From NCBI GenBank assembly GCA_964354155.1, contig CAYGYG010000013.1:3696-67695 (forward strand): a stretch of DNA of 64,000 bases, written 5' to 3'. Below are positions 4,166-45,546 of this stretch, piece after piece (the stretch's first letter is position 1; each line of letters opens with the position of its first letter). The DNA comes from an uncultured bacterium. Lineage in GTDB: Bacteria > Hydrothermota > Tepidihabitantia > SM23-42 > CAYGYG01. Position numbers and translations under genes: made by a program. The notes beneath the pieces were generated by a model. The model worked only from the letters and a program-made list of their open reading frames with translations, had not been told where the DNA came from and did not search any database.

Positions 4166-4383
4166 GTCGCACGCGGTAAGGAAAGCGGATCAGGACATCG
4201 GATGATCAGTAGGCAGGATATCAGCAGTGAGATTATCAGTTTGAATCCGCTGCAATCCGTCTGAATCAAGATATGTCTTATCACTGTAATCTGCCGTTTT
4301 ATCGTCGTAATCAACGGTGCTCTGCACCGAACGATCTAACGAATGAAACGCTCTAACGATCTTAACGTTTGTCATCACTGTAC
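4166..4383. repeat. Mosaic intergenic spacer (inverted CTGAT-family repeat, ATCCG tract, two ATCACTGTAATC units, GGTGC..GCACC hairpin, TAACG tract)
   Basis: The same bricks recur in many spacers between 12.9 and 45.5 kb. Confidence 0.7.
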
Positions 4384-5073
4384 ATGAATCTTGCAGCTCT
4401 AGGTAAGGTCACATACGGCATGTATGTCCTGAGCGCCCGGCAAGGGGAGAAGCTTAACGGCCAGATCGTGAATACGGTGGTTCAGGTCACGGCCCAGCCA
4501 TGCCAGGTCGCGGTCGCGGTCAACAAGAAAAACCTCACGCACGACTACATTCAATCGAGCCAGGCGTTTTCGATTTCGATCCTCGGGCAGTCGGCGCCGC
4601 TTGAGTTCATCGGCCGGTTTGGATTCAGAACCGGTCGCGACCTGGACAAGTTCAAGCTGACCGGGCACCGGATAAGTACCGGCGGTATGCCGATCGTAAC
4701 CGACTGGATGGTCGGGTACCTCGAATGCCGGTTGGTAAACTCGATCGATACTGGAACCCATACCGTTTTCATCGGTCTCGTCACGGCGGCCGAAATCACC
4801 GGTGACGAACCGCCGATGACCTACGCCTTTTATCATGATGTCAAGCACGGCAAGACCCAGCAGAACGCGCCGACTTTTGTCAAAGAAGCGGCGCCAGGGG
4901 AGGTTAGTCCAATGAACACTTACCGATGCACCATCTGCAACTATATCTACGATCCTGCGGTCGGCGACCCGGATGCCAACGTGAAACCGGGAACGCCGTT
5001 CGCGGCCCTACCCGACACCTGGGTCTGTCCCGTTTGCGGCGCGGGCAAAGATCAGTTTGTCAAGGTGGAGTAG
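4384..5073 (+). CDS. Flavin reductase-like domain fused to C-terminal rubredoxin (high-molecular-weight rubredoxin)
   Basis: [19 protein letters not shown] and GTHTVFIG flavin-reductase motifs. [10 protein letters not shown]...W.CPVCG rubredoxin motifs. Confidence 0.9.
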
Positions 5074-5076
5074 CCC

Positions 5077-6252
5077 GTGCATTGCCGCGAGATCAGGGAC
5101 GGCGTCTTTGCGGTTGGGGCGATTGACTGGGATCGGCGGCTTTTCGATGAATTGATACCCCTGCCGGACGGGACTTCCTACAACGCCTACCTCATCAAGG
5201 GCCGCGACCGGGTCGCGCTCCTGGATACCGTTGACCCGGCCAAGGAACCGGAGCTGCTTTGCAATTTGAAAGAGCTCGGCATAAGCCACCTCGACTATAT
5301 CGTCGCCCATCATGGTGAGCAGGACCATTCGGGCGCAATCCCGGCGGTCCTCAAGCATTACCCGATGGCCCGGGTCGTGACCAATCCGAAATGCAAGAAC
5401 ATTCTCATCGAGCACCTCAAGATCAGGGAAGATCTTTTCGTCCAGGTCGACGACCGCGCCGTACTCGACCTCGGCGGCCGGATCTTGGAATTCATCATTG
5501 CGCCCTGGGTCCACTGGCCGGAAACGATGCTCTCCTACTTGAGGGAGGAGAAAATCCTGTTCACCTGCGACCTTTTCGGTTCGCATCTTGCAACCAGCGA
5601 ACTGTACTCGATCGAAGAGGCGCGGGTGTACGAATCGGCCAAGCGCTACTACGCCGAAATAATGATGCCGTTTCGGACCAGCATTCAGGGGCACCTCAAG
5701 CGGCTGCAGGGTTATGCGCTTGACATCATTGCGCCGAGCCACGGTCCGGTCCACAACCGTCCCGCGTTCATCACCGGTGCCTACCAGGACTGGACTTCTG
5801 ATCAGGTGAAGAATGAGGTGGTCCTGCCCTACGTTTCGATGCACGGCAGCGTCAACCGGATGGCCGCCATTTTGACCGATGAGTTGATGCGGCGCAATAT
5901 CCGGGTCATGCCTTTCAATCTGACCCGAACCGACCTTGGCGAGCTGGCGATAGCACTGGTCGACGCCGCGACCATCGTGATTGGGGCGCCCACCGTGCTG
6001 GGCGGGCCGCATCCGGCCGCCGTGTACGCCGCGTATCTTGCCAATGCGCTCCGGCCCAAGACCCGGTTTGCGTCGATCATCGGCTCCTACGGCTGGGGCT
6101 CACGGATGGTCGAAGTCTTGAAGGGGCTGCTGGGCAATCTCAAGGTGGAGATGATCGACCCGGTGGTCATCAAGGGCTTGCCCGGTGACGATGATCGGCG
6201 GGCGCTGGCGGCTCTTGCCGACCAGATCGAGCGGCGTCACAAAACTTTATGA
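5077..6252 (+). CDS. fprA: FprA family A-type flavoprotein (flavodiiron protein)
   Basis: GTSYNAYLI, HGEQDHSG di-iron motif, HWPET, YYAEIM.PF, C-terminal flavodoxin (SMHGS, GSYGWG). Confidence 0.92.
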   Translation: MHCREIRDGVFAVGAIDWDRRLFDELIPLPDGTSYNAYLIKGRDRVALLDTVDPAKEPELLCNLKELGISHLDYIVAHHGEQDHSGAIPAVLKHYPMARVVTNPKCKNILIEHLKIREDLFVQVDDRAVLDLGGRILEFIIAPWVHWPETMLSYLREEKILFTCDLFGSHLATSELYSIEEARVYESAKRYYAEIMMPFRTSIQGHLKRLQGYALDIIAPSHGPVHNRPAFITGAYQDWTSDQVKNEVVLPYVSMHGSVNRMAAILTDELMRRNIRVMPFNLTRTDLGELAIALVDAATIVIGAPTVLGGPHPAAVYAAYLANALRPKTRFASIIGSYGWGSRMVEVLKGLLGNLKVEMIDPVVIKGLPGDDDRRALAALADQIERRHKTL

Positions 6253-6316
6253 TGGTTGGTCACCGCTCGACCGGCCGCCGCGGGCGGTGTCGGACGAACT
6301 GAAAGGAGGACGGTTG

Positions 6317-6799
6317 ATGGCCAGGATATTCGACGTCAAGGAGATATTTCGCTTCGCGGTTCAGATTGAGAAGAACGGTGAATCATTCTACCGGTCGGCG
6401 GCCCGGAAAATCAAGGATAAGAAGATCCGGGACATCTTTCTCGGTCTTGCCGACGACGAAGTCAAACACCGGGAGTTCTTTCAGGGAACAATCGCCGGTC
6501 TCGGTGACTACGAGCCGCACGAGACCTATCCGGGCGAGTACTACAACTACCTCAAGGCGTACGTGGCCAACGTAGTCTTCAAACCGGCCGAGCTGGCGCT
6601 CGCCGTCAAGAAGCTAAAGGGCGTTGCCGAGGCGCTGGATTTTGCGATCCAGCGGGAGCTGGAATCGATTCTCTACTATGTCGAGAGCAAGAACTTCGTC
6701 CCGCCCGACCAGCACCAGGGCGTGGACCGGGTGATCGCAGAAGAACGTCGGCACTACTGGCGCCTTTCCGAACTCAAGAAGGGCAAGAAGAGCAGGTAG
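6317..6799 (+). CDS. Rubrerythrin-like ferritin-family protein
   Basis: A.QIE.NG..FY, DEVKH, AIQRE..SI.YY, EERRH. RBS AGGAGG before ATG 6317. Confidence 0.85.
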   Translation: MARIFDVKEIFRFAVQIEKNGESFYRSAARKIKDKKIRDIFLGLADDEVKHREFFQGTIAGLGDYEPHETYPGEYYNYLKAYVANVVFKPAELALAVKKLKGVAEALDFAIQRELESILYYVESKNFVPPDQHQGVDRVIAEERRHYWRLSELKKGKKSR

Positions 6800-7732
6800 G
6801 TGGGCGTGAAGGTCTTTATCTCCTGTGACATGGAGGGTGTGTGCGGGACCTTTTCGTGGAAGGACTTTGACGCCAACAAGGAGCGCTACCGCACCTTGAT
6901 GACCGAGGAACTGCGGGCCGCGGTCCGCGGCCTCTCGGGCAGTCGCGTGCCTGTCAAGGCAATCGTCGCCAATGATGCCCATGGATTCGGTGACAACATC
7001 CACGCCGATTTGCTTCCGGCCAAGGTCCACCTGGTCCGGGGCAGCCCGCGCGGTCTGGGCATGATGGAGGGGATTGACCGCGACACCGATGTCGCATTCT
7101 TTCTCGGCTATCACGGAGCCGCCGGGACCGCCGCTTCACTGATGGACCACACCTACGCGTCTTCTTCGATCTACCGCATTGTGGTCAACGGGATTGAAAT
7201 GAGCGAGTCGACGATAAACGGAGGTATTGCCGCGGATTTTGGAGTCCCGGTCGGGCTTATCTCTGGTGACCAGGCAACCATAACGCAGGCAAAGAGGTTT
7301 TTCGGCCCCAAGACCGAGTACGTCGTGACCAAGCAAGGCATTTCGAGATTCTCCGCCCAAATGAGACCGGTCGAACAGGTCCGCGAGGAGCTGACGCGGA
7401 AGGCCTTGCAGGCGGCATCCCGGGTCGGGGCGCTCAAACCTCTGCGGACCAAACGACCGATCAGTGTCGTGGTTGATCTGGTTGATACGCTGAGAACGGA
7501 CTTAGTCAGCTGCGCCGCCCAGTTTGAGCGAACCGGCGGGCGGCAGGTTTCTTTTCGGGCGCGCAACTATGTCGCATTGTACCGCAAACTCAGACTTCTG
7601 CTCATGCTCGCCGCCCGGGCCAAGGACTTACACCTAGGGCTGAATGAAGTTGGGCGATTCGTGAATCGCCCCTACAGGTTCGTAGGGACAACTCACGAGT
7701 TGTCCTGCCTCCTAATATATGGAAGGAGTTAA
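6800..7732 (+). CDS. dppA: D-aminopeptidase DppA (M55 family); C-terminus extended through REP-like palindromes
   Basis: KVFISCDMEGV, NDAHG, GYHG, HTY, SE..IN. Confidence 0.85.
   Translation: MGVKVFISCDMEGVCGTFSWKDFDANKERYRTLMTEELRAAVRGLSGSRVPVKAIVANDAHGFGDNIHADLLPAKVHLVRGSPRGLGMMEGIDRDTDVAFFLGYHGAAGTAASLMDHTYASSSIYRIVVNGIEMSESTINGGIAADFGVPVGLISGDQATITQAKRFFGPKTEYVVTKQGISRFSAQMRPVEQVREELTRKALQAASRVGALKPLRTKRPISVVVDLVDTLRTDLVSCAAQFERTGGRQVSFRARNYVALYRKLRLLLMLAARAKDLHLGLNEVGRFVNRPYRFVGTTHELSCLLIYGRS
7652..7705. repeat. Back-to-back pair of GTAG-family REP-like palindromes
   Basis: GGGCGATTC-GT-GAATCGCCC-CTAC (7652-7675) and GTAG-GGACAACTC-AC-GAGTTGTCC (7682-7705). Confidence 0.75.
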
Positions 7733-7733
7733 C

Positions 7734-8522
7734 ATGAAGGTGCTTTTGAAAATCGTACCGGTTATCTTGATTCTGTCCTGTGCGACCACCGGGCCGGGCG
7801 GGAAGAAGAGCTTCATCTTGATCCCAACTTCGGTCGAGAAAAACTTGGGCAAGGAAATCGCCCGGGAAGTTGAGACCGAAGAGAAGATGCTGGCGAACTC
7901 CGAAGTGCAAAGCTATGTCAATCAGCTGGGACAGCGGATTGCGCGGGTTTCAGACCGCAAGTCCCTGCGCTACAGTTTCAAGGTCATCGAAAAGGACGAG
8001 ATCAACGCCTTTGCCTGTCCCGGCGGATATATCTACGTCTATTCGGGACTCATGAAGGCCTTTGACAACGAGGCCCAGCTCGCCGCGGTGCTGGCCCATG
8101 AAGTGGGGCATGTCGTGGCGCGCCATTCGGTGAAGCAGTTGCAGGCGGTGTACGGCTACGGCCTGCTCATGGAAATTGCGCTGGGCGACAAGATGGGTGC
8201 CCTGGCGCGCAAGGCGGTCGACGCATCGGTCGGTTTGATCCTGCAGGGCTACGGCCGCGGCAATGAACTCGAAGCCGACAACATGGGCGTTCTCTACACC
8301 AAGAAGGTGAGCCTCAATCCGGGGGGCATGGTTCAAGTCTTTGAGAAGTTCAAGAGAATGGAAGGTAAACCGCCCTCGACTCTGGAGAAACTAATGTCCA
8401 CCCATCCACCGGCGTCGGACCGCATTGCCAACGCCAAGAAGCAGATGAGTAAGGTGGGGGGGGCGGACTTAAGCTACAACGAGGATTCTTACAAGCGCAT
8501 CCTGAGTCGGCTCGCACCGTAG
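7734..8522 (+). CDS. M48 family metalloprotease, probable lipoprotein
   Basis: LILSC lipobox, INAFACPGG, AHEVGHVVARH (HExxH), E.EAD, STHP...RI. Confidence 0.9.
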   Translation: MKVLLKIVPVILILSCATTGPGGKKSFILIPTSVEKNLGKEIAREVETEEKMLANSEVQSYVNQLGQRIARVSDRKSLRYSFKVIEKDEINAFACPGGYIYVYSGLMKAFDNEAQLAAVLAHEVGHVVARHSVKQLQAVYGYGLLMEIALGDKMGALARKAVDASVGLILQGYGRGNELEADNMGVLYTKKVSLNPGGMVQVFEKFKRMEGKPPSTLEKLMSTHPPASDRIANAKKQMSKVGGADLSYNEDSYKRILSRLAP

Positions 8523-8528
8523 CCCAAA

Positions 8529-9386
8529 TTGCGCCCCGGGAACCGCCGTCCAATATTTGGTCTGATCGGCGCGGGCCGCGTCGGTACGGCCTTCGCCTAC
8601 TGGCTCGAGCGTGCTGGTTACACTGTTGCCGGCGCCTGGGACTCAAGCCCGGCCGCCCTGGCGCGGGCGGAAAAAATCATGGGCCGAAGGGTCCGGGTGT
8701 CGCTTGACCGGCTGGTCGAAGCGTCGAACATCCTCCTGGTGGGTACGCCGGATGCCACGATCCCGCGCATCGCGCGCCGCATTGGGGGTGCGCTTCGACG
8801 GGACACGACCCTGTTTCACTTTTCAGGCGTGCTCGGGCCGCGGCTTGTCAAACGCACCGGCGTCAGCCAGGGGGTCATCCATCCGCTGGCCGCATTTCCG
8901 GACTACGGGGCATATCGCAAGATGAAGGACTGCTATTTCTCGGTGAGCGGTGACCCCAGGGCGGTGCGCACCGCGCAGCATTTCTTGCGCCGGATGGGAA
9001 TGAAGTACTTCGTACTCGGTGCCCGCGACCGGCGCTACTACCATTTGGCCGCGGTCTTCGCGTCCAACTTCTTAGTCGCCTTGCTGGCGGTGGCGGCGCG
9101 GCTGGGCCTTCGTTCCGGCATCAAAGAGCAGGACTTCATCAGGTACTTTCAGCCGCTGATTACCGGCCAGCTGGCTGATGTGATGCGGCAGGGACTCAAG
9201 AAATCGCTCTCCGGTCCGGTTGAGCGCGGCGAACTGAAGACCATCGTTGCGCACCGGCGCGCCCTGCGCGTGGCGGGCCGAGACTATCTCAAGATCTACG
9301 ATTTGCTTTCCCGGGAGCTGCTCAGGCTCTGCCCTGGCCCGGGTCGGCGGCGCGCGGTGCTGGAGAAGCTGTTCGATGAAGACTGA
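8529..9386 (+). CDS. Rossmann-like plus DUF2520 domain protein
   Basis: IGAGRVG, H.SG, HPL, YHLAAVFASNF, L.GP..RG...T...H. Confidence 0.85.
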   Translation: MRPGNRRPIFGLIGAGRVGTAFAYWLERAGYTVAGAWDSSPAALARAEKIMGRRVRVSLDRLVEASNILLVGTPDATIPRIARRIGGALRRDTTLFHFSGVLGPRLVKRTGVSQGVIHPLAAFPDYGAYRKMKDCYFSVSGDPRAVRTAQHFLRRMGMKYFVLGARDRRYYHLAAVFASNFLVALLAVAARLGLRSGIKEQDFIRYFQPLITGQLADVMRQGLKKSLSGPVERGELKTIVAHRRALRVAGRDYLKIYDLLSRELLRLCPGPGRRRAVLEKLFDED

Positions 9387-10221: not shown

Positions 10222-10232
10222 TGGACTCCTTC

Positions 10233-11347
10233 GGGGACGTTGGTTCCGCACGCACAATTCCTCTTGACCAAAGGACACGGCCGGCTATCATCTGGTTAGC
10301 TTGACTATTGCTATGGCAAGAAAACCAAGACTCGATGCGCCGGGCGCCCTGCATCACATAATCGCCCGGGGTATTGACCGGCAGAGGATCTTCACGGGCC
10401 ATTCCGATTGCATGGACTTTGTGCGCAGGGTGGCCGAGGTAGCGAACGACCTCAAGCCGCAGATCTACGCGTGGGTCTTGATGCCGACCCATTTCCACCT
10501 CTTGCTGCGAACCGGTAATGCGGGCTTGTCGACCGTGATGCGACGCTTGATGACTGGTTACGCGGTGGGATTCAACCTGAGGCACACAAGATCAGGTCAT
10601 TTGTTTCAGAACCGATACAAGTCGTTACTGTGTCAGGATGATCCATATCTCTTGGAGCTCACTAGGTATATCCATCTGAATCCGGTACGCGCCGGGTTGC
10701 TTTCAAGTCTAGAGCAGCTCGATGTCCACCCGTGGTGCGGTCACGCCGTGTTGATGGGCAAGGCGACTTACGCATGGCAGAATGTAGATGCGATACTCTC
10801 GCGATTCGGCCCGAGTCTGAGGGTCGGCCGGCGTGTCTATCGCGACTTTCTGGAGGACGGCCTGTCCAGGAATCAGCCGGCGGGAGACCTTCACCGCAGC
10901 ATCGGCCGGGAAAGCGGTGAGTGGTCGCGAGTACTGTCACGACAGCGACGGAGCGAAAATGCAGCGAGCGATACCCGGGTCTTGGGCAGCGATGATTTCG
11001 TCGAATCGGTGGTCGCGGAGGCCGAACGTCTGGAAAAAAATAGCTTGCGGCTGATGAGGGTGAGGCCGACCGTGGATCTGCTGTGCGGTAGCTTGGCCCT
11101 GGGCCATGACCTTGAGCCTGCTGAAGTGACATCCGGAGCCAAGCGCCGGAAGGTGATTAAGGCCCGGAAGGATGTTGTCTTTATTGCCATGAAGAAGCTC
11201 GGTTATAGCGGAGCCGAGGTCGCACGGCATCTGGGCGTAAGTGCGTCATGCATAAATCGAATTGCGGCCGGCAGCGAGTTGAGCCCGGTCGGCAAGAAAA
11301 TCTTGGACCTGCTGAAAACGTAATGTACTCTCGGAACCAACGTCCCC
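10233..11347 (+). mobile_element. Y1-transposase element bounded by perfect 16-bp terminal inverted repeats, with internal promoter
   Basis: GGGGACGTTGGTTCCG (10233-10248) and CGGAACCAACGTCCCC (11332-11347) enclose one transposase ORF and a TTGACC-N16-TATCAT promoter (10264-10291). No obvious target-site duplication. Confidence 0.8.
10313..11323 (+). CDS. REP-associated-type tyrosine (Y1, HUH) transposase with C-terminal helix-turn-helix
   Basis: MARKPR..PG.LHH, MPTHFHLL (HUH), HLFQNRYKS, RYIHLNPVRAG (catalytic Tyr). C-terminal DnaA-C-like HTH. Confidence 0.88.
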   Translation: MARKPRLDAPGALHHIIARGIDRQRIFTGHSDCMDFVRRVAEVANDLKPQIYAWVLMPTHFHLLLRTGNAGLSTVMRRLMTGYAVGFNLRHTRSGHLFQNRYKSLLCQDDPYLLELTRYIHLNPVRAGLLSSLEQLDVHPWCGHAVLMGKATYAWQNVDAILSRFGPSLRVGRRVYRDFLEDGLSRNQPAGDLHRSIGRESGEWSRVLSRQRRSENAASDTRVLGSDDFVESVVAEAERLEKNSLRLMRVRPTVDLLCGSLALGHDLEPAEVTSGAKRRKVIKARKDVVFIAMKKLGYSGAEVARHLGVSASCINRIAAGSELSPVGKKILDLLKT

Positions 11348-12893: not shown

Positions 12894-12945
12894 CACTGAT
12901 CTTCTGACCGCTGATATCCTTCCCACTGATGTCCGGATATCCTGG
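12894..12945 (+). repeat. Solo copy of the ~55-bp CTGAT-periodic repeat family
   Basis: cactgatcttctgaccgctgatatccttcccactgatgtccggatatcctgg aligns with copies at 28072, 28222, 31068 and 31734, and with inverted copies near 4190 and 27598. Confidence 0.75.
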
Positions 12946-12973
12946 TGTGCCGGCAATCGACGTTCCTTTTCCC

Positions 12974-25046: not shown

Positions 25047-25186
25047 GGGAGAGGAATGCAAGAATGCCCTTCGGGCGGAATCCACGTACGAAGCGTTGAA
25101 ATCGTCTCGGCGAGACGGAATCGGCCCTTTCGGGCGGAACGAATCAGTACTTGATCACTGTAATCGTGTTTTCTTATCACAGCCTG

Positions 25187-25214
25187 CCCCGTTAGACTGG
25201 AAGTCTAAACGGGG
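25187..25214 (+). repeat. 28-bp hairpin repeat CCCCGTTAGACTGGAAGTCTAAACGGGG, copy 1
   Basis: Identical copies at 25339, 31149, 36206 and 42125; 5'-truncated copy at 40723. Confidence 0.9.
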
Positions 25215-25237
25215 TAATCGACGATGTTTCATCGCTC

Positions 25238-25265: not shown

Positions 25266-25338
25266 TCCGTGATTAACACTGTCACCGTAGCTCTTTGAAA
25301 ACACCATTAACTCCGTTCCGATGCTTCATCGCTGCCGG

Positions 25339-25366
25339 CCCCGTTAGACTGGAAGTCTAAACGGGG
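25339..25366 (+). repeat. 28-bp hairpin repeat, copy 2
   Basis: Identical to copy 1. A diverged copy follows at 25428-25458. Confidence 0.9.
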
Positions 25367-25522
25367 TCATTGCGAGGCCGTAGGCCGCGGCAATCTCATC
25401 CATTCATCTCTGTAAGCGGTCGTTTCACCCCGTTAGATATGGCAATGTCTAATCCGGGTCACTCTGAGTGAGACGAAGAGTCTCAATTAGATCCTTCGTC
25501 CCGGACGGGACTCAGGATGACA
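25366..25522 (+). repeat. REP/MITE-like palindromic elements (GTCATTGCGAG..GGCAATCT and GTCACTCTGAG..AGATCCTTCG..CTCAGGATGACA)
   Basis: Both match widespread miniature palindromic repeat types. The second is self-complementary at its ends (GTCACTCTGAG/CTCAGGATGAC). Confidence 0.6.
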
Positions 25523-25579
25523 GCTAGAGCCAACGAATTGCCTCAATAGCCAATTACCAACAACAACCAAGGAGCTAAC

Positions 25580-27568: not shown

Positions 27569-27597
27569 GGCCTGCGAAGGAGCGAAATAGCAGCGCT

Positions 27598-27652
27598 GAC
27601 CAGATGACCAGAAGATCAGTGGGAAGGGTACCGGCAGATCAGGTGATCAGTG
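27598..27652 (-). repeat. Left inverted arm (CTGAT family) of four-helix-bundle cassette 1
   Basis: Reverse complement aligns ungapped to 28072-28126 at about 36/55 positions (hand count). Confidence 0.7.
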
Positions 27653-28062
27653 TGAAAGATGGGGGAGGATCAGAATCACAGTATAATGCTATCGCAGGTT
27701 TTGAGAGACTGTGGGTGTGGCAGAAATCACACCGGCTCATGCTTGAAGTCCACTCTCTCTGCAAGAAACTGCCCAGGATTGAGAGGTTCAAGATCAGAGA
27801 CCAGTTGGAGCGTTCCTCATGCTCGGTTCCGGACAACATCGCTGAAGGCCACACGAGCTACTACTATCAGGACAAGATCAAGAGCTTCAATATCGCCCGA
27901 AAGGAAGCAGGGGAAACCCAGAATCATATTAGGAGTCTGCAGGGCAAGGGTTACCTACCAGCCGGGGATGCTGACGATTTTGTTAAGCGTTATGAAGAGG
28001 TCATCAAAGGGATCAACGGATATATCAATTGGGTGAAAGAGAAGAAGGGCGCCCGAAAATGA
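27652..28062 (+). CDS. Four helix bundle protein (23S rRNA intervening-sequence protein/bAvd-like family)
   Basis: FE.L.VWQKSH, FKIRDQLERS..SVPDNIAEG, IARKEAGET. GTG start at 27652 after AGGTGA. Confidence 0.88.
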   Translation: MKDGGGSESQYNAIAGFERLWVWQKSHRLMLEVHSLCKKLPRIERFKIRDQLERSSCSVPDNIAEGHTSYYYQDKIKSFNIARKEAGETQNHIRSLQGKGYLPAGDADDFVKRYEEVIKGINGYINWVKEKKGARK

Positions 28063-28071
28063 ACGACACGC

Positions 28072-28272
28072 GTCTGATGTGCTGATATGCCGATATCCTG
28101 GCTACTGATATTCGGATATCCTGATATGCTGCCTTCGGCATCGATTACAGTGATGGCAGGACTGAGATCCCTCGCTGCCCTCGGGACGATGTAAACATCG
28201 GATTACGATGATTCATTGCTGATTTCTGCTGTGCTGATACCCTGCCCACTGATGCCCGGATGCGCTGATATG
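28072..28272 (+). repeat. Right arm of cassette 1 (28072-28126) and a second direct CTGAT-family copy (about 28222-28272)
   Basis: CTGAT/CCGAT/CGGAT recur at 8-12-nt spacing. An inverted ATCACTGTAATC unit lies at 28143-28155. Confidence 0.7.
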
Positions 28273-28295
28273 CTTGAACTAATGAGGTCAACCCC

Positions 28296-30644: not shown

Positions 30645-31148
30645 CGGATAGAATGTAATTTGAGAGCTTGTAGGGCTTTGTTCCATGCGTGGAGGCGTGG
30701 ACTCGCTCTTAAGGTAAATGGGGGAATCCCCAGCAGGTCCGCGCAATAATCAAATACGTGCGTTCTTTGCCGCACTCGGTTCTTAGCGGTCTATCACCGG
30801 CACCGATTGATGTTATCGCTGTGATCGGTTTTCTCGTCATCACTGTGATCAGCGGTTCTATCACTGTAATCGAACGCGCAGCGTGTGTAACCGAGGCGGG
30901 CGAAGCCTGCTGAAGCAGGGAACAGGATACAGGGCACAGCAATCAGGGAACCAGCATTGAGCGTACAGAGTAGCGAGTAGAGAGAAGCGACAGAAAACGC
31001 AATCCGTTTCGTCTATCGTCCTAGTGAGCGTAGCGAACGATCGTCCTTAGTCCGTCGCCCGTATCTCCCGATCTTCCGACCGCTGATACCCCGTCCACTG
31101 ACCATCTGATGTCCTGATCCGCTCACCTTCGGCGTTCATCACTGCCTG

Positions 31149-31176
31149 CCCCGTTAGACTGGAAGTCTAAACGGGG
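31149..31176 (+). repeat. 28-bp hairpin repeat, copy 3
   Basis: Identical to copy 1; lies directly upstream of the hicBA promoter (TTGACG-N16-TATAAT, 31210-31237). Confidence 0.9.
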
Positions 31177-31243
31177 TAATCGACGGTGCCCTGCACCCAG
31201 AAGATGGGCTTGACGTGGTCCTCTCAAGGAGTATAATGCAATC

Positions 31244-31726: not shown

Positions 31727-31858
31727 CGGTCACCCGATCTTCCGACCGCTTATACCCCTCCCACTGATTCGCTGATCTTCTGATCTACTTGTTTTCTTTT
31801 CACCCTTTACGTTTTCCCCTTCACCTTTAACCATTCACTGACATAATAGGAGGCCTTA

Positions 31859-33529: not shown

Positions 33530-33587
33530 AAAATGATCCCGGATGCACGATGCAGGATACTCGATAGCCAAGGTAAGGAGATCAGCA

Positions 33588-33968
33588 ATGACACGATACA
33601 CTGACCTGGAAATCTACAAACTAGGACACAATCTGGCCGTTGAAGTCCACAAGATGACCCTAGCGGATTTGCCAAAGTTCGAGATGTTCGAGGAGGGCGG
33701 TCAGGTCAGGCGTTCCTCAAAGTCCATCGTCAGCAACATCGTTGAGGGCTATGGCCGGCGGCGCTACAAGCAGGAGTTCATTCAGTTTCTCACCTATGCA
33801 ATGGCTTCGTGTGATGAAACGAAAGAGCACCTGCAGTTGCTATGGGATACGGATTCACTCAAGGACAGAACGCGATTTGTGCACTTTTCTGAGGGGTATG
33901 AGAAGCTGGGCGCCAAACTCAACAGTTTCATAGCTTCCGTCATAAAAGGCCATCTCTCACCTAGGTAG
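33588..33968 (+). CDS. Four helix bundle protein
   Basis: [45 protein letters not shown]. Confidence 0.9.
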
Positions 33969-34190
33969 CGCTTCTTGTAGCTTCTCCTGTGTCCATCCTG
34001 TATCTTGTGTCGTTCATCTTGTTTCATGCCTTGCATATCGTGTATCGAGTATCCTGGATCTTATCTCGTGTCATTCTCGTCGTTCCTGCTTCGCATCATG
34101 TATCCTGGATCCCATGCCGTTCTCTTTTATCGTGTATCCTGTATCGAGTATCATTCTTTTCCATCGTGTATCATGTATCGTGGATCAGGC
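33969..34190 (+). repeat. Heptamer (TATCNTG-like) periodic tract; an inverted block lies upstream of the gene at 33541-33567
   Basis: tatcgtg-tatcgag-tatcctg-gatc blocks. Upstream ggatgca-cgatgca-ggatact-cgatag is the reverse-complement pattern. Confidence 0.8.
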
Positions 34191-35352: not shown

Positions 35353-35481
35353 GTTCCTCTTTTTTCTTCACCTTTTTCTGCGCCTGGCGCTTTGTCAAAT
35401 CCGCAATCCAAAATCTTAACGGTGCTTTATCGCTGTAATCGTGTGTTCTTATCACTGTAATCTACGCGTAGCGACGCGGAG

Positions 35482-35799: not shown

Positions 35800-36214
35800 G
35801 GTCAAGTACTGCATCGTCGGAGCCTACGCGGTTGCCTACTATGCCCGGCCGAGATATACGAAGGACCTCGATATTTTCATTGATCCGGTGTGGGACAACG
35901 CGGCACGGCTCGTGAAAGCGTTGGAAGAGTTCGGATTCAAGGGTTTGAACCTACGGCCGGAAGACTTCATGGTCAAGGGAAGCGTGGTTCAGCTTGGTTA
36001 TGAACCGGTTAGGGTTGATATTGTAAGCTCGATCAGCGGCTGTTCTTTCGGCACGGTCTGGAAGAGCCGGGAGGTTGGCCGATACGGGAAAGAAAAGGTC
36101 TTCTTCATCGGTCTGGCCCAGTTGATCAAGAACAAACGCGCCGCGCAGCGCGCGCAGGACAAGGCGGACCTTGAGCTTCTCGCCAAAGTGCGTGCCCGGC
36201 GGCGACCCCGTTAG
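35747..36214 (+). CDS. Nucleotidyltransferase-fold protein (DUF6036-like)
   Basis: VGAYAV..Y..PRYTKDLDI, NK.A..R.QD.ADL. Confidence 0.8.
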   Translation: MKTEKDYEELLRLFNKHKVKYCIVGAYAVAYYARPRYTKDLDIFIDPVWDNAARLVKALEEFGFKGLNLRPEDFMVKGSVVQLGYEPVRVDIVSSISGCSFGTVWKSREVGRYGKEKVFFIGLAQLIKNKRAAQRAQDKADLELLAKVRARRRPR

Positions 36215-36233
36215 ACTGGAAGTCTAAACGGGG
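36206..36233 (+). repeat. 28-bp hairpin repeat, copy 4 (supplies the TAG stop of the nucleotidyltransferase)
   Basis: Identical to copy 1; the ORF ends in CCG-CGT-TAG-like overlap within the repeat (stop at 36212-36214). Confidence 0.9.
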
Positions 36234-36353
36234 TAATCGACGGTGCTCCGCACCGAACGATACTAACGCTCATCGCTGTCCCGTACGGGACGATCTCGTC
36301 AACGCTGTTGATTTTCGTATGATTTGATGTATAATCTACGCAATGGAGGCCTC

Positions 36354-36832: not shown

Positions 36833-37116
36833 CGGTCTAAGGTTCTAACGCTTTTAATGTGCTCAACGCTCCTATCACTGTAATCGTGTTTTCTTATCAC
36901 CGTAATCGACGATGCTTCATCGCTGTAATCGATGTGCCTCCGGCACAAACGTTCTAACGATATTAACGTTATAACCCTCTTCATCACTGTAATCAGCCTT
37001 TCTCATCGCTGTAATCGATTCCGCTTCAGCGGAAACCAAATAAACTTGATAAACCAGATAAACCAAGAGAACGTTCCTAACGCTATTAACGATATTAACG
37101 GCAGATGCTTCATCGT
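36833..37116. repeat. Mosaic spacer: five ATCA/GCTGTAATC units, TTCCGCTTCAGCGGAA hairpin, AAACCA tract, TAACG tracts
   Basis: Units at 36872, 36894, 36917, 36981 and 37003; hairpin at 37019-37034. Confidence 0.8.
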
Positions 37117-37458: not shown

Positions 37459-37459
37459 T

Positions 37460-38509: not shown

Positions 38510-38743
38510 CGCTCAAAGTGATCTGAACGCTCCTATCACCGTAATCAGCCGTTTCATCACTGCGCCGTCGTGTGCGCCCTGAGTATTTCGAGGGGTAATC
38601 GATTCCGCTTCAGCGGAAACCAAACAAACCAAAACCAGATAAACCAGACAAACCAAAATGCCCATTTGACCCCAGGGGACCTTTGACCCCGTAGGTACAT
38701 CTTTCTATAATGAAGAAGAGCAGTAATTTAAGGAGGTGTTCAC

Positions 38744-40669: not shown

Positions 40670-40722
40670 TTGACGCTATTAATCCATCCCGCCTGTCACG
40701 TGTGATCACCTATTACATCGTG

Positions 40723-40800
40723 GTTAGACTGGAAGTCTAAACGGGGTAATCGATTCCGCTTCAGCGGAAACCAAATAAACTTGATAAACCAGATGAACCA
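40723..40800 (+). repeat. 5'-truncated 28-bp hairpin followed by TTCCGCTTCAGCGGAA and AAACCA tract
   Basis: gttagactggaagtctaaacggggtaatcgattccgcttcagcggaaacc; same order as at 42125-42205. Confidence 0.85.
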
Positions 40801-40821
40801 AGAGGACGTTCTAACGAAATC

Positions 40822-41235
40822 ATGAAACTCCAATCCTTCCAGGACCTTAAAGTGTGGCAGTTGTCTTCAGCATGTTCAAATGATATATCACAGTTGATCA
40901 AAACCTTCCCCCGTGCTGAACGTTTTGAACTCGCTGATGATCTTTTGCGTGCAGCGCGATCTGTACCAGCTAACATAAGCGAAGGATGGGGGAGATTGTT
41001 CCCAAAAGAGAAAATATCATTCTACAATATTTCTTACGGTTCAGCCGAAGAGTGCTCTAACCACTTAATCGAAGCGCTCAACAATGGCTATATAGATAAT
41101 GAAACTAACAGTAGATATCAAAAGAGAATACACGTTATTTCTGTCAAACTTACCAATCTCATTATTTCCACGCGCAAGCGTATCAATTCTTCAGTCCCGC
41201 AGGGACGTGTCTCCAGTCTGCAAAAGCAGCCGTGA
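40822..41235 (+). CDS. Four helix bundle protein
   Basis: SFQDLKVWQ, FP..E.F.L...L.RAARSVPANISEG.GR. Confidence 0.9.
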   Translation: MKLQSFQDLKVWQLSSACSNDISQLIKTFPRAERFELADDLLRAARSVPANISEGWGRLFPKEKISFYNISYGSAEECSNHLIEALNNGYIDNETNSRYQKRIHVISVKLTNLIISTRKRINSSVPQGRVSSLQKQP

Positions 41236-41320
41236 CTTCAGGAGTGAAACGACATGATTACAGTCCGAAGGACGTATTCTGTTCAGGCGTAGCCGTGACT
41301 CCAGGAGTGAAACGACGTGA
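41228..41320 (+). repeat. Two 30-bp direct repeats (28/30 identical, 63-nt period) interleaved with short tetraloop hairpins
   Basis: agccgtgacttcaggagtgaaacgacatga (41228-41257) and agccgtgactccaggagtgaaacgacgtga (41291-41320). Confidence 0.75.
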
Positions 41321-41429
41321 CCTCAGCTCGCAGAGCGTGTTATGTTCAAAGTAGAGATTTGACCCCAGGTGACGCGGCCTTGGCGCAAACGCCCATTGAC
41401 AGCAAGAAGAATCAAAGTATAATAAGTGT

Positions 41430-41648
41430 ATGACAAAACTGGCTCAGATTAAGAAGAGATACCGGAATGAGTGGCTGGCTTTCCGAGTAGCGAAGGAAAC
41501 ACCAGATGGGCATGTTTATGGTCGGCTGATTTCGCACCATCCTGATCGACGTAGACTTCATGAAATCCTGCGTAAAAAGATGATAAAAGGAGTATATATA
41601 TCTTATTCAGGTCCGTTGGTTAAATCGGGCTATACAGTGATGTTCTAA
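41430..41648 (+). CDS. Small hypothetical protein (DUF5678-like), probably leaderless
   Basis: KKRY.NEW.AF, L..HHPDR..L. ATG 6 nt after TATAAT of a perfect TTGACA-N16-TATAAT promoter (41396-41423). Confidence 0.65.
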   Translation: MTKLAQIKKRYRNEWLAFRVAKETPDGHVYGRLISHHPDRRRLHEILRKKMIKGVYISYSGPLVKSGYTVMF

Positions 41649-42025
41649 TGCAACTTCCGTTAAAAATACCTATCGTAGTGGCAAGAATAAGGGTCGATGG
41701 GCCGAAGGCTTTCCGAGAAATCGATATGATATTTGACACGGGCGCGGTTTATACAATGATTTCTTGGGATATCGCAAAGGATATCGGTTACGACCCAGCT
41801 GTTTCTGAGAAGAGAACATCGATCATAACCGCCAACGGAATAATAGAAGTGCCACTGATAAAAGTCAAAAGAATTACCATCAAGACTGCGGTTGCGGATG
41901 ATGTTGAAGTAATATGCCATGATATTCCGGAAGTGGTTGGAATCGAAGGGCTACTTGGTCTAAGTTTTATAAGGCATTTTCGCACCGTTATCGACTATCG
42001 AAAGAAACAATTGCTGATAAGTTAA
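41648..42025 (+). CDS. Retropepsin-like (clan AA) aspartic protease
   Basis: IFDTGA catalytic motif, GLLGL.F. TAATG coupling to the upstream gene. Confidence 0.85.
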   Translation: MQLPLKIPIVVARIRVDGPKAFREIDMIFDTGAVYTMISWDIAKDIGYDPAVSEKRTSIITANGIIEVPLIKVKRITIKTAVADDVEVICHDIPEVVGIEGLLGLSFIRHFRTVIDYRKKQLLIS

Positions 42026-42124
42026 TCCGTCTACATCCGCTCTGATCCGTATGAATCGCGTTCTATCTTATCACTGTAATCAGCCGTTTTATCACTGTCA
42101 TCGACGATGCTTCATCGGTGCCTG

Positions 42125-42152
42125 CCCCGTTAGACTGGAAGTCTAAACGGGG
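42125..42152 (+). repeat. 28-bp hairpin repeat, copy 5
   Basis: Identical to copy 1. Confidence 0.9.
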
Positions 42153-42255
42153 TAATCGATCCCGCTTCAGCGGAAACCAAACAAACCAAAACCAGATAAA
42201 CCAGACACTTGACTTTTCCTGGTCAATCGATAATATCGTTCATGGAGGTGAACAA

Positions 42256-42777
42256 ATGTTCGTACTCATGAACAATAAATCATCGCTGGGTCTTCTGGAG
42301 TTTCTTATTACCAGCGGTGGCGAACTTCACGTCCGGGAGATTTCACGAAAGACGGGACTCAGCCTGGGATTTGTGAGCCGTGTGCTCCGTCAATTACATA
42401 AGGATGGCCTGATTTGTGCCCAGAGGAGAGGCCGTATGTTGCTGTACCGTGTTGATCACGCCAACGCGGTTGTGAAGCAGATCAAGGTACTGGTAACCGT
42501 CGCCGGGCTCTATCCGTTGATTAAGAAGTCTCGGACACTAGCTCGGCGGGTCATACTATTCGGTAGTGCCGCCCGCGGCGAGAATATGCCGGACAGCGAT
42601 GTCGATCTTTTCATCATGACCAACGACCGATCGAGCGTCCGGTCGTTCGTAAGCATGTATCCGGGAGTTGTCCCGATAATAATGCGGAGCACCGAGTATG
42701 CCAACCTTAGAAAAACGGATTTTGCCCTATACGATCAAATCAGCCGCGGGATAATCTTATGGGAGAAAAGTGAATAG
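42256..42777 (+). CDS. HTH plus minimal nucleotidyltransferase (MNT)
   Basis: N-terminal wHTH; LFGSAARGE...DSDVDL. GGAGG RBS. Confidence 0.88.
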   Translation: MFVLMNNKSSLGLLEFLITSGGELHVREISRKTGLSLGFVSRVLRQLHKDGLICAQRRGRMLLYRVDHANAVVKQIKVLVTVAGLYPLIKKSRTLARRVILFGSAARGENMPDSDVDLFIMTNDRSSVRSFVSMYPGVVPIIMRSTEYANLRKTDFALYDQISRGIILWEKSE

Positions 42778-43198
42778 CGATTTTAAGAAGTGCCTGGAGG
42801 ATCGTAGATTAGTGGTATTCAAGACTTCGCCGGTGATGATTAAGAAGGAACTGAAGTCCGCCGAGTATGACTTGAAAAGAGCGCGAATTTCACTGAGAGA
42901 GAATGACGCTAAATGGGCAACCATTCAGGGCTATTATGCGATGTTTCATACAGGCCGTGCTTTAATCTACACGAAAGGATACCGTGAGAAGAGTCATCGT
43001 TGCCTGGCAATAGCCTTGAAGGAGTTGTTCGTTGATCAAGGCAAGTTACCGACCGAATACTTGAATCATTTGAAGGACGCCATGGACTTACGTGAAGATG
43101 CGGATTACGGTTTTATCTACGATGGAGAATCGGCAAAGAGCATAATAGACCGTGCCGACAAGTTCCTCGGTTACGCTAAAGGCCTGTTGAACGTATGA
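42770..43198 (+). CDS. HEPN domain protein (MNT-HEPN pair)
   Basis: A..DL..A, YYAMFH..RAL, SH, R..ADY. Confidence 0.88.
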   Translation: MNSDFKKCLEDRRLVVFKTSPVMIKKELKSAEYDLKRARISLRENDAKWATIQGYYAMFHTGRALIYTKGYREKSHRCLAIALKELFVDQGKLPTEYLNHLKDAMDLREDADYGFIYDGESAKSIIDRADKFLGYAKGLLNV

Positions 43199-43408
43199 TG
43201 AACGTGGCTGAGGGTTTTGCTCGTGAGACCGACAACGAATTCATCCGCAGCTTGGCTACCTGGCAGCCTGGCAACTGGGCAATCGGGCAATCGAGCAACG
43301 GGGCAAAGAGCAGGACATGGAATGCTGGAACGGTGCGTTGCACCGCAATGACGCTCTGACGCAATGACCCAATGACGTTTTTTCTTTTTCTGACCCAATG
43401 ACTCTTCC

Positions 43409-43810
43409 ATGAGAATCGCCCGTTTCCAGGACTTGCTCGTATGGAAGTTGTCGTCAGAGCTGGCCAAGGATGTCGCCACCAGGCTTGCTTCTTTGTTTCC
43501 GAAAAGTGAGCAGTATCGACTCGGTGATCAGATAATCCGGTCTTCTCGGTCCGTACCGGCTCAGATATCCGAAGGTTTCAGAAAATCCTCTTTGAAGGAG
43601 AAACACCACTATTACGAAATGGCAACGACATCTAACGATGAAACTGAGAATCATCTTGTTGAAGCATACAATAACAGATTCATTGACGCTGGAGTCCTAA
43701 GGCGGTATGTCAATCGGGTTGTTCGTGTGCGTATTCTTCTATCTCGCCTCATGGCGTCAATCCGTCATTTGGAAACCGTGCGGCGCACTAAGCCGGCTCG
43801 TAGAGCCTGA
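43409..43810 (+). CDS. Four helix bundle protein
   Basis: RFQDL.VW, FP.SE.Y.L.DQI.RSSRSVPA.ISEG. Confidence 0.88.
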   Translation: MRIARFQDLLVWKLSSELAKDVATRLASLFPKSEQYRLGDQIIRSSRSVPAQISEGFRKSSLKEKHHYYEMATTSNDETENHLVEAYNNRFIDAGVLRRYVNRVVRVRILLSRLMASIRHLETVRRTKPARRA

Positions 43811-43835
43811 ACCACGCGTTACAGCATGAGTTTTC

Positions 43836-44044
43836 CCGCTCATGAAATGAGCTTCTACCGCATCCCTGATGCCATCTGTTGCCGCGCGCAGCGCTAAACC
43901 CGTTCGGCGAAGCTGAACTACAACCGTCATCTTATGACCAATCCCGCATTCTTCTGCCATCTTTCCCGCCGTCTGTTGCCGCGCGTCAGCGCCACAACCG
44001 CTCATGAAATGAGCTTCTACCGCATCCCTGATGCCATCTGTTGC
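43836..44044 (+). repeat. 47-bp exact direct repeat (43836-43882 and 43998-44044) with small hairpins
   Basis: ccgctcatgaaatgagcttctaccgcatccctgatgccatctgttgc occurs twice. Confidence 0.85.
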
Positions 44045-44105
44045 TTCGCGACCATCTGTTTGGATTTGACCCCAGAGGGTCTTGACTCTTAACAAGGAGG
44101 GCTAT

Positions 44106-45491
44106 ATGAAGTTCAGAGCAGTTCTGGTTATCTTGCTCGGCGTCGTTTCCCTCGCCATCGGCTGGACTCCTCGCAAGCTCGTCGCGAGCTATCCAGCATG
44201 GAACTACTGGTGGCTGAACACCAGGATCGGCGCTGACCGTTTTGACACCGTCTACTGCGCGGTCGCCCGTTACAATTACTCACAGAGCGATCCGGATCAC
44301 GACCTCTATATCCTCAACAGCGAAGGGGATACGATCCGCAAGCGGAGTCCCTGGCATGGCTACGAGTACCAGCCGATCGTCCAGGACGCGGCCGGCACCA
44401 ACATCTACATCGGACAGCCGACCATAGGGTTCTGGATTTCCAGCAACTACCACATGGACGGCGGTGCAACGGATGATTCCAACCAGATCCACTCTTCACG
44501 GGCGAATTCAGGCGACGGTGTCTACTACACAAAACTTGCCGCCAACGGCGGCCGGATCTACTACAACGTCAAGATCTACACCGGTTCTCCCTGGGCCGGT
44601 AAATCGTATATGGCGATCGACCGGCGCAACTTTCTCTATATCGCCTGGGGCGACAACACCCAGTACTTGGTCTATGCGAAGTCGACCGACCGCGGCGCGT
44701 CCTGGGTCATTGACACGCTGTTCAATATGAGTGTTCTCGCCCAGCCCAAGGTCGTTTGCGATGCCAGCAACAACGTCCATTTTGTCTGGCGCACCTGGAC
44801 CAGCGGGTGTCAACTTCGCTATATGAAACTGCGGCCTGATGGTGCCTGCGCTGTGGATAATTCGATCTTCGCGTCCGCTTCTGAAACCTGGGATCCTCAG
44901 ATTGCGCTTGACCAGGGCAACAATATCCACGTCGTCTATACAGATGCGGCTTCGGGCGGTCACAATATCTACTACACGGCTATAAAAGGCTATCTCGACA
45001 AGAACGGCCAGCCGGCTTCTGACTCCGAGCTCACGGTCGTGAAGGACACGGCGATCCAATATGATGCGGTGGGCCTGGCCTATCCCAAGATCGCGCTCGA
45101 TGTCCGGCAAAGGCCCCAGGTTATCTTCGAGCAGGGCCAGTACGGCAACAACACCGACAAGGCCGTCTATCACATCCGCGGCGATGCGATAGTATCGGTT
45201 GAAGAATCTGAAATCGTCCGCATGCAGCCCAGACTTCCTGACATATCGGTCTATCCCAATCCTTCTTCGGGCAGGGTCTCGGTCGTATACTATGTGCCGA
45301 GTGCAACAAGCCACAAGCTGACTGTGACGGATGCAGCCGGTCGAACCGTCATTGGCCCGAGGTCGATCAAGGCTGTTTCGGGTACGAACCGACATTCGCT
45401 GGACATGACATTGCTCCCTTCTGGCGTCTATTTTGTGCGAATATCTTCATCTTCTGGCGCTGCTTTCCACAAACTCCTGCTCTTGCGTTGA
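44106..45491 (+). CDS. Exported beta-rich (BNR/propeller-like) protein with T9SS-like C-terminal tail
   Basis: Signal peptide, S.D.GASW Asp-box, H.VW/H.VY repeats, YPNP...D..GR.V...LPSGVYFV. Confidence 0.75.
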   Translation: MKFRAVLVILLGVVSLAIGWTPRKLVASYPAWNYWWLNTRIGADRFDTVYCAVARYNYSQSDPDHDLYILNSEGDTIRKRSPWHGYEYQPIVQDAAGTNIYIGQPTIGFWISSNYHMDGGATDDSNQIHSSRANSGDGVYYTKLAANGGRIYYNVKIYTGSPWAGKSYMAIDRRNFLYIAWGDNTQYLVYAKSTDRGASWVIDTLFNMSVLAQPKVVCDASNNVHFVWRTWTSGCQLRYMKLRPDGACAVDNSIFASASETWDPQIALDQGNNIHVVYTDAASGGHNIYYTAIKGYLDKNGQPASDSELTVVKDTAIQYDAVGLAYPKIALDVRQRPQVIFEQGQYGNNTDKAVYHIRGDAIVSVEESEIVRMQPRLPDISVYPNPSSGRVSVVYYVPSATSHKLTVTDAAGRTVIGPRSIKAVSGTNRHSLDMTLLPSGVYFVRISSSSGAAFHKLLLLR

Positions 45492-45546
45492 TGTCTATCA
45501 CCGTAATCTGCCGTTCTTATCACCGTAATCGATCATTATGCCGATA

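Follow-up and report, generated by a model that had tools for sequence, protein, structure and literature searches.

The spacers between the genes of a 64,000-nt stretch of DNA (the window, positions 1-64,000), taken from a contig of an uncultured, WOR-3-type Hydrothermota bacterium, carry a repeated 12-nt word, ATC-N3-GTAATC. We found that the hexamer GTAATC, its invariant 3' half, is the conserved end of a word that stands at gene boundaries across phyla and in phages, and that it is not supported as a recombination joint. On balance, we favour a reading that sees the spacers as mosaics, assembled from several independent families of tiny, non-coding and turnover-prone repeats, with no single system cutting at GTAATC. 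The repeats between genes are probably fast-turnover, selfish elements, since related strains differ by whole pieces. A preliminary description of the same DNA had regarded the spacers as permutations of one kit; shared bricks in varied order do occur, yet they belong to several unrelated repeat families rather than to one system.

Exact matches to the pattern YATCRCYGTAATC number 14 in the window (0.00 expected from 100 shuffles), and GTAATC alone occurs 51 times against 22.6 expected. Loosening the word to ATC-N3-GT[A/G/C]ATC for a full count gave 22 intergenic copies within 4280-45530, of which 20 lie on the + strand and 2 on the - strand, and 3 further matches inside genes, which is the chance level. 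All of the roughly 19 intergenic copies first described exist, 14 in the strict form and the remaining five as one-base variants (Table 1), although their coordinates had been given one base too low; an extra minus-strand word lies at 28201. The runs of two to three copies with a 21-23-nt period were likewise borne out, the measured spacings being 21-24 nt (successively 21, 24, 22, 22, 22, 23, 22, 21 and 22 nt). The arrays of the window are one-directional and co-oriented with the genes (20 of 22 words on the + strand), and two spacer types, GTGTTTTCT and WGCCGTTTY, separate the words. The word itself is asymmetric and forms no palindrome, the palindromic part being the variable hairpin that follows the last word only. 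Rfam at gathering thresholds gave no family match in the window, and a literature search on six exact 12-mers of the word returned nothing beyond primers; among RNA runs, none was found to contain the stretch. The repeats are confined to 4-46 kb; the lower-GC segment 46000-64000 (47-52% GC, long + strand operons) contains zero words, hairpins and bricks.

A scan of a genome collection with GTAATC-N7-12-ATCRCYGTAATC, a pattern that does not demand the first ATC, yielded at least 119 loci. At the size of the database several hundred chance matches are expected, and about 40% of the loci listed are chance matches inside ordinary genes. Among the matches listed, at least 69 loci have a complete first word (about 2 expected), and at least 37 have an inverted word within 100 nt upstream as well; their locus GC content ranges from 29% to 65%, and their taxon labels comprise Omnitrophota, Elusimicrobia, Desantisbacteria (7 contigs of one metagenome-assembled genome, MAG), Planctomycetia, WOR-3, Stahlbacteria, TA06, Nitrospinota, Bacteroidetes, Saccharibacteria and Dehalococcoidia. 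The word is found between genes in MAGs with at least 10 phylum labels. A sequence logo built from 370 tandem words shows 92-99% conservation at positions 1-3 and 7-12 and C at position 5 in 81%; position 4 varies among A, G and T, and position 6 between T and C. The spacers of these words are T-rich with a period mode of 21 nt, the tandem period across loci being 19-24 nt. Mixed arrays have a fixed polarity, GATTAC..GAT coming first and ATC..GTAATC second in 41 of 43 of those among the matches listed, so that GTAATC faces outward. No target-site duplications were seen at the ends of word modules, and no small-gene cassettes were found between inverted GTAATC arrays; ordinary genes alone lie between distant arrays. 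At one locus (L111, 1986-2250, MAG CAZRHN01), a complete two-plus-two word module and the next ~45 nt are tandemly duplicated with a 131-nt period.

The central triplets of facing words in inverted arrays showed neither pairing nor covariation, and a reading of these arrays as RNA stems was rejected on that ground. Similarly, a wobble-pairing reading of the R/Y positions is weakened by T at position 4 in 20% of the words. Because facing words neither pair nor co-vary, we infer that the word is a bipartite protein recognition site and no RNA stem; its parts, GATTAC and GAT, may lie on one helical face. By analogy with known systems, our best reading is that the word repeats are gene-boundary repeats of the kind of repetitive extragenic palindromes (REP), bacterial interspersed mosaic elements (BIME) and Neisseria intergenic mosaic elements (NIME), or of the Ssn-repeat kind, recognised by a putative protein. 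The main family would comprise arrays of the 12-nt word with a T-rich spacer of ~9 nt, a unit of 21-22 nt and usually a short GC-rich hairpin at the end; such arrays would gain or lose whole units, and whole modules would appear, vanish or be replaced at gene boundaries.

Phages display this turnover in orthologous gaps. A scan of viral contigs with the word pattern retrieved eight related contigs (L174, L177, L187, L197, L190, L167, L157 and L162) that encode portal, scaffold, major capsid and adaptor proteins, and whose stop-to-start gaps are in many cases occupied by two-plus-two word modules; modules are present in most of the orthologous gaps compared. The scaffold-to-capsid gap is empty (6-9 nt) in L157 and L162, holds GATTAC words in L197 and L167, TCTCAAT-type words in L177, CCAAAT-type words in L187 and L190 (the latter having additional GC hairpins) and two GC hairpins in L174. 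Between L174 and L177, which are 98-99% identical in this region, a whole module has been swapped, and their portal-to-scaffold gaps differ by 19 nt, exactly a word with its spacer. Hence the phage modules are dispensable and interchangeable and change by whole units, because orthologous gaps are empty or differently filled. Besides GATTAC words, these orthologous gaps in L174, L177, L187 and L190 house no fewer than two further families of inverted word arrays, TCTCAAT/ATTGAGA and CCAAAT/ATTTGG.

These phage gaps also bear on a functional alternative, in which the words would be punctuation at the borders of cistrons or operons, bound there by a conserved nucleic-acid-binding factor of the host or phage, with mobility being secondary. 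Possible roles would be insulation, a transcriptional roadblock, RNA processing or stabilisation, or nucleoid structuring, by analogy with functions of REP and BIME and with mycobacteriophage stoperators. Stoperators are 13-bp asymmetric repressor sites that lie in many intergenic gaps in one orientation relative to transcription. Like them, the word is short and asymmetric and stands at many phage gene boundaries, and in the window it is co-oriented with transcription; unlike stoperators, which are single sites belonging to one phage cluster and its repressor, the words form phased and inverted arrays in distant bacteria. Such punctuation would agree with the conservation of a 12-nt sequence across phyla at 29% to 65% GC, with the location of modules past a stop codon and ahead of the ribosome-binding site or promoter that comes next, both in phage structural operons and at housekeeping genes, with the fixed geometry of two plus two sites phased at about two helical turns with constant polarity, and with the shared direction of arrays and transcription in the window. 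Against it, orthologous gaps that are empty or differently filled leave no neighbouring gene dependent on the word, whole modules distinguish one strain from another, paired words do not co-vary, and Rfam gives no match. Outside the window, moreover, the bias in orientation is weak: over all loci, the ratio of one-directional arrays that follow the direction of the flanking genes to those that do not is 28:14, an excess to which the window itself contributes. We therefore hold functional punctuation to be rather unlikely as the primary role.

The reading of the spacers as mosaics of independent families is further supported by a second element of the window, a 28-bp hairpin, CCCCGTTAGACTGGAAGTCTAAACGGGG, present in six + strand copies that have an identical 20-nt core and folding at -10.7 kcal/mol (z = -5.5). 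As first described, GTAATC closes this hairpin: 5 of 6 copies end in GGGG+TAATC, and the same number have TAATCG as the right flank. On the left, 4 of 6 copies are preceded by the initial half of a word (ATCACAG, ATCGCTG, ATCACTG or ATCGGTG, followed by CCTG or CCGG); a fifth copy, at 40719, is truncated at its left end. Since the left flank is a first word half and the right flank TAATCG, the hairpin splits a word, the filled form ATCRCTG-CCTG-hairpin-TAATC corresponding to the empty form ATCGCTGTAATC. It would insert into the word between ATCRCTG and TAATC or, on the other strand, directly 3' of GATTAC. We aligned Logan contigs from four sediment metagenomes, which are short and break at repeats, to the window, and one of 363 nt reads 41870-42117, CT, 42152-42264, with 0 mismatches over 248 + 113 flanking bases, i.e. 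it carries an allele free of the hairpin (Table 1). A metagenome scan for the hairpin core returned one locus, L121, which reads AATCACTG-CCTG-hairpin-TAATCG and also holds an element of ~125 nt; as this longer element has the same 10-bp termini, the 28-bp hairpin is the minimal form of an inverted-repeat element. Two features of miniature inverted-repeat transposable elements (MITEs) are present, namely terminal inverted repeats (CCCCGTTAGAC and GTCTAAACGGGG) and presence/absence polymorphism at one locus.

The hairpin resembles the small dispersed repeats (SDR) of Nostoc, which Elhai et al. reportedly described in Genome Research in 2008 as nested mini-elements of 21-27 nt: it forms a hairpin, is well below 100 nt, is nested in other repeats and shows filled and empty sites between relatives. 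It differs from them in phylum, in its unrelated sequence, in the existence of the longer relative with the same termini, and in having as its target a specific position inside another repeat word. An IS608-like insertion 3' of TTAC would fit the hairpin junction on the opposite strand, a low-probability reading given that the longer relative in L121 does not lie beside TTAC and that, on a conventional reading of GC skew, the opposite strand would be the leading-strand template. The Y1 transposase of the window (see below) was rejected as a partner of the hairpin because the ends of the transposase element are unrelated to it.

What follows GTAATC is indeed drawn from a limited menu of two spacer types and a few hairpin types, the hairpins beginning 2 nt (RA) past it. 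CGGTGC-N3-GCACCG follows GTAATC in three copies (4315, 36241 and a variant at ~31184), a fourth copy at 43331 having no GTAATC before it; the other menu hairpins are TTCCGCTTCAGCGGAA (n=4), the CGATGCTTCATCG type (n=4) and TGTGCCTCCGGCACA (n=1). These end hairpins fold at -5.8 to -6.7 kcal/mol. Over all loci, a hairpin of -6 kcal/mol or lower follows the outermost word in 22% of cases versus 10% in shuffles, and no enrichment was found relative to sequence windows 150 nt away; as the enrichment holds against the former and fails against the latter, only the fixed +2 start of the end hairpin is notable. Hairpin elements of the types GTCATTGCGAGG..GCAATC and GGGTCACTCTGAG..CTCAGGATGAC also lie at 25367-25400 and 25455-25535, and look-alikes (tgtcattctgagc.., gtcattgcgagg..) occupy gaps in L174, L187, L190 and L197 of the phage family. 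These elements depart from the published pattern of the SRM repeat, which is compared below.

The proposal that a site-specific recombination system shuffles a fixed kit of non-coding bricks, crossing over or joining them at GTAATC, was assessed by all-against-all alignment of 19 intergenic stretches of the window. Distinct right ends of repeated segments lie 0-4 nt past GTAATC in 20-26% of cases, compared with 1.5-2.3% of background positions, and left ends cluster at the word start. Brick junctions are thus enriched about 10-fold just past GTAATC, as had been predicted, yet about three quarters of them fall elsewhere, and an enrichment of this kind is to be expected of any conserved word whose flanks vary. 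Different bricks do follow the same GTAATC in different copies, loose contig ends in metagenomes included, where the same bricks have other bricks next to them, and one insertion lies within 1 nt of the start of GTAATC. However, GTAATC in other phyla is simply the outer end of inverted arrays, neither a recombinase nor an integrase, such as the IntI of attC-bearing integron cassette arrays, was found among the window gene products scanned against Pfam, and the breakpoints between strains do not share a cut.

Indeed, a related-strain contig with ~98% identical flanks consists of 4178-4298 (2 differences), 95 other nt and 4383-4454, and a contig of a 91-96% identical relative joins 33553 to 34163 via 26 nt. 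The latter is devoid of the 609-bp cassette 33554-34162, which comprises the second PF05635 gene and its heptamer arrays. No metagenome contigs spanning the spacer 36833-37104 were found. The breakpoints seen lie 7 nt past GTAATC, inside the word or far from any GTAATC. The expectation of brick-level differences between close strains has therefore held, with whole pieces differing at 42118-42151, 4299-4382 and 33554-34162; together with the phage gaps, they document the gain, loss and swapping of non-coding modules. A GTAATC recombination joint did not emerge from them (breakpoints 4298/4383, 33553/34163 and inside the word), and of the proposed site-specific insertion the defined place of the 28-bp hairpin within the word is what stands, the other strain breakpoints having no common site. 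Altogether, we consider recombination at GTAATC improbable.

An even simpler explanation would dispense with any dedicated factor and regard the spacers as simple-sequence DNA arising from replication slippage, local duplication and decay. It would account for the change of one word plus spacer between the related phages and for the many short-period (8-11 nt) runs of TAACG, AAACCA, ATCCG and CTGAT words, but local slippage cannot have placed the same 12-mer under at least 10 phylum labels and in phages, and neither the fixed polarity of inverted arrays nor the identity of the 28-bp hairpin at 6 dispersed sites and in an unrelated metagenome contig agrees with it, so that we regard it as highly improbable. 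In a mosaic of independent families, by comparison, the permutations of bricks would arise when repeats insert into one another, units slip, and identical bricks at dispersed sites recombine. In the spacer 36833-37104 a TAACG run is broken twice by word arrays, which looks like nesting.

Other bricks belong to small-gene cassettes. Four PF05635 genes (23S rRNA intervening-sequence protein, a four-helix bundle) lie within 16 kb of the window, three of them between inverted arrays, each of its own private word (Table 1). Runs of CTGAT, GTATC and GGCAAC would be arms, or orphaned arms, of such cassettes, and the gene-less CTGAT or ATCAG arrays are probably orphan arms, judging from their words. 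The cassettes resemble 23S rRNA intervening sequences in that PF05635 genes (3 of 4 in the window) sit in repeat-armed stems; unlike these sequences, they lie between protein-coding genes. They account for CTGAT- and GTATC-type bricks and not for the GTAATC word. Directly after four-helix-bundle gene 3 we observed a 63-nt tandem duplication (41228-41348, 79% identical), and after gene 4 a 53-nt direct repeat (43836-44050, 96% identical, 162 nt apart).

Six spacers have a predicted sigma-70-like promoter at their 3' end (36308, 38007, 38683, 39333, 41396 and 42209), with TTGACA-16-TATAAT at 41396 and TTGACC-17-TATAAT at 38683. AAACCA runs with a 9-10 nt period and TTTGACCCC boxes stand before such promoters, the boxes being directly upstream of four spacer ends; both may be parts of promoters that close each spacer. 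A box (A)TTTGACCCCAGG occurs five times in spacers (38665, 38682, 39315, 41358 and 44065), 10-35 nt upstream of, or overlapping, the -35-like TTGAC of strong sigma-70-type promoters, and may act in the small-gene island as an upstream element of promoters or as a regulator element.

Several known systems offer comparisons for the word. REP and BIME sequences, associated with RAYT (Y1 HUH) transposases, occur in enterobacteria and Pseudomonas (PMC2817692, PMC3333891, PMC3116915). As in these, the repeats of the window are extragenic, highly repeated mosaics of a conserved motif and few other short motifs, with inverted pairs; a conserved head stands right before a hairpin (GTAG plus palindrome in REP, GTAATC-RA plus hairpin here), and a Y1 transposase gene is present in the window. 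REPs typically have more than 100 extragenic copies per genome; here, 22 of 22 words counted are intergenic within the 64-kb window. Unlike a REP, the word is non-palindromic, the hairpin after it varies between copies, and it is common to many phyla, whereas REPs are species-specific. The Y1 gene also departs from RAYTs. It encodes an IS200-like Y1 (HUH) transposase of 340 aa with an extra C-terminal region (10301-11323, +), and its element (10233-11347) is framed by perfect but unrelated 16-bp inverted repeats, GGGGACGTTGGTTCCG, which have no other copies in the window, and by no words. This transposase is a candidate enzyme, apparently unlinked to word or hairpin.

Another analogy is offered by the intergenic mosaic elements of Neisseria with their dRS3 nodes (PMC1797815) and by the partnership of the Ssn nuclease with the SRM repeat across phyla, in which a small nuclease gene is framed by repeats that the nuclease cuts (PMC11893778). 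In both, as here, variable blocks are joined by a short conserved repeat, and the hundreds of SRM copies around genes, with a related motif in several phyla, liken that repeat to the word. The dRS3/NTS repeat differs from the word in being a palindromic hairpin; the published SRM pattern HGTCWY..RNCYNB has 1 match in the window versus 0.43 expected in shuffles, and that match is intragenic; and, unlike in Ssn systems, with their GIY-YIG (cd10448) nuclease, none of the scanned window proteins gave a GIY-YIG match. Ssn/SRM could nevertheless serve as a model for how a system of word plus protein might work. A related design, with a GxxExxY gene between inverted word arrays, is present with other words in Algoriphagus, Bacteroides and Bernardetia; the arm word of Bernardetia, CACAGAGAT, has 8 nt in common with GATTACAGAGAT, a single case.

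Several observations weigh against the interpretation we favour. No enzyme or binding protein could be linked to the word in the window and the fetched word loci, and the ends of the Y1 element match neither the word nor the 28-bp hairpin. A GxxExxY (PF13366) homologue was found by phmmer and hmmsearch neither in the window nor in 119 genome loci and 153 viral loci, about 200 fetched loci with words being covered; likewise, viral contigs yielded no GxxExxY relatives, tblastn against phages gave none, a combined word-plus-peptide DNA pattern had 76 viral matches with zero GxxExxY genes, and in the literature on GxxExxY nothing on repeats was found. As for the hairpin, no target-site duplication, a further feature of MITEs, was found at 7 junction pairs, and the empty and filled alleles differ by one extra base (ATCGCTG versus ATCGGTG), so that transposition and gene conversion from another copy are equally likely; the contig with the empty allele could also derive from a duplicated region. 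Finally, the co-orientation of the window arrays with genes leaves room for a role at the transcript level, a point to be read with the overall ratio given above.

More tentatively, and with less confidence than for the mosaic as such, we propose that the word is read by one deeply conserved or widely transferred putative protein, that phased arrays form a cross-phylum class of gene-boundary repeats with sister families, and that the hairpin is a second-order parasite. If so, the word-reading protein would be a small nuclease, a transposase or a gene-boundary factor; the sister families TCTCAAT, CCAAAT, CTGAT and GTATC would compete with the word for the same stop-to-start gaps; and this genome would display the system in active turnover, with the word itself as the landing site of the 28-bp hairpin.

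The positions of the features in the window are collected in Table 1. Two observations concern genes next to words. At 4373-4387 the partial word ATCACTGTA abuts ATG 4385, the likely start of a flavin reductase-rubredoxin gene (MNLAALGK..), with no Shine-Dalgarno sequence. Directly after the word pair at 45497-45530 lies a 22-codon frame, MKNFALIGVAGYIAPRHLQAIN (45547-45615), similar to the N-terminus of a Gfo/Idh/MocA oxidoreductase, whose stop overlaps the start of a UDP-GlcNAc 2-epimerase gene; judged by this similarity, it is probably a gene remnant.

Table 1. Word arrays, hairpins, cassettes and strain-variable blocks of the window.
Feature	Position	Strand	Details
Gene-less CTGAT/ATCAG arrays	~4186-4242, 12898-12950, 28215-28275, 31070-31122, 31736-31790
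Two words, ATCACTGTAATC and ATCGTCGTAATC	4280-4312	+	Spacer TGCCGTTTT, 21-nt period; hairpin CGGTGCTCTGCACCG next, 4315-4329
Block replaced in related strain	4299-4382	+	Second word, hairpin, TAACG run, partial word ATCACTGTA
Variant word	4301	+	ATCGTCGTAATC
Variant word	25154	+	G precedes
Word and split word	25154-25234	+	Spacer GTGTTTTCT; ATCACAG / CCTG + 28-bp hairpin (25187-25214) / TAATC; hairpin CGATGTTTCATCG
Split word	25328-25366	+	ATCGCTG / CCGG + 28-bp hairpin; right side TCATTG instead of TAATC
Diverged variant of 28-bp hairpin	25428-25458
Four-helix-bundle gene 1	gene 27652-28062, cassette 27596-28130	+	Upstream GATCAG-word arm, downstream CTGAT(AT)-word arm
Sole two minus-strand words	28143-28154, 28201-28212	-	Past four-helix-bundle gene 1, with a CTGAT-word array on each side
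Three words	30815-30871	+	Two are GTGATC variants; periods 24, 21 nt
Variant words	30815, 30839	+	GTGATC
Split word	31138-31199	+	ATCACTG / CCTG + 28-bp hairpin (31149-31176) / TAATC, then GA + hairpin CGGTGCCCTGCACC
Four-helix-bundle gene 2	gene 33589-33968, cassette 33535-34190	+	Inverted GATAC arm upstream, GTATC heptamer arrays downstream
Two words	35429-35462	+	Spacer GTGTGTTCT, 22-nt period
28-bp hairpin	36206-36255	+	Followed by TAATC + GA + hairpin CGGTGCTCCGCACCG; left word half not recognisable
Three words	36874-36947	+	Periods 22, 23 nt; hairpin TGTGCCTCCGGCACA at end; TAACG-word runs either side
Two words	36983-37034	+	22-nt period; GA + hairpin TTCCGCTTCAGCGGAA
AAACCA run, then TAACG run	37035-37070, then to ATG at 37105		After array 36983-37034
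Word and split word	38535-38618	+	Non-hairpin insert: ATCACTG / 32 nt / GTAATC; hairpin TTCCGCTTCAGCGGAA
Left-truncated 28-bp hairpin	40719-40769	+	TAATC + GA + hairpin TTCCGCTTCAGCGGAA; upstream of four-helix-bundle gene 3
Four-helix-bundle gene 3	40822-41235		No inverted arms
Two words and split word	42070-42175	+	Second word GTCATC variant; hairpin CGATGCTTCATCG; ATCGGTG / CCTG + 28-bp hairpin (42125-42152) / TAATC; hairpin TCCCGCTTCAGCGGAA
Variant word	42091	+	GTCATC
34 nt with hairpin, swapped for CT in metagenome allele	42118-42151	+	Empty allele CATCGCTGTAATC, perfect word
Four-helix-bundle gene 4	43409-43810		GGCAAY / RTTGCC arms
Two words	45497-45530	+	22-nt period; start 5 nt past stop of type IX secretion system (T9SS)-cargo gene (44082-45491)

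Species-specific intergenic repeats such as REP, BIME and NIME are textbook material; a 12-nt word kept across phyla and phages at gene boundaries in a fixed phased geometry is not, and this cross-phylum word, together with its use as a landing site, is what is new relative to known kinds. Such a word implies a conserved protein partner that is without a name so far, and its arrays give a handle on the colonisation and exchange of operon gaps. The window documents differences by whole pieces, one of them in flanks identical over 361 bases and others between related strains and related phages, and it shows one element targeting the word itself. In practice, repeats of this kind break short-read assemblies, spawn false open reading frames and mimic the binding sites of regulators, and recognising them improves the annotation of uncultured lineages.

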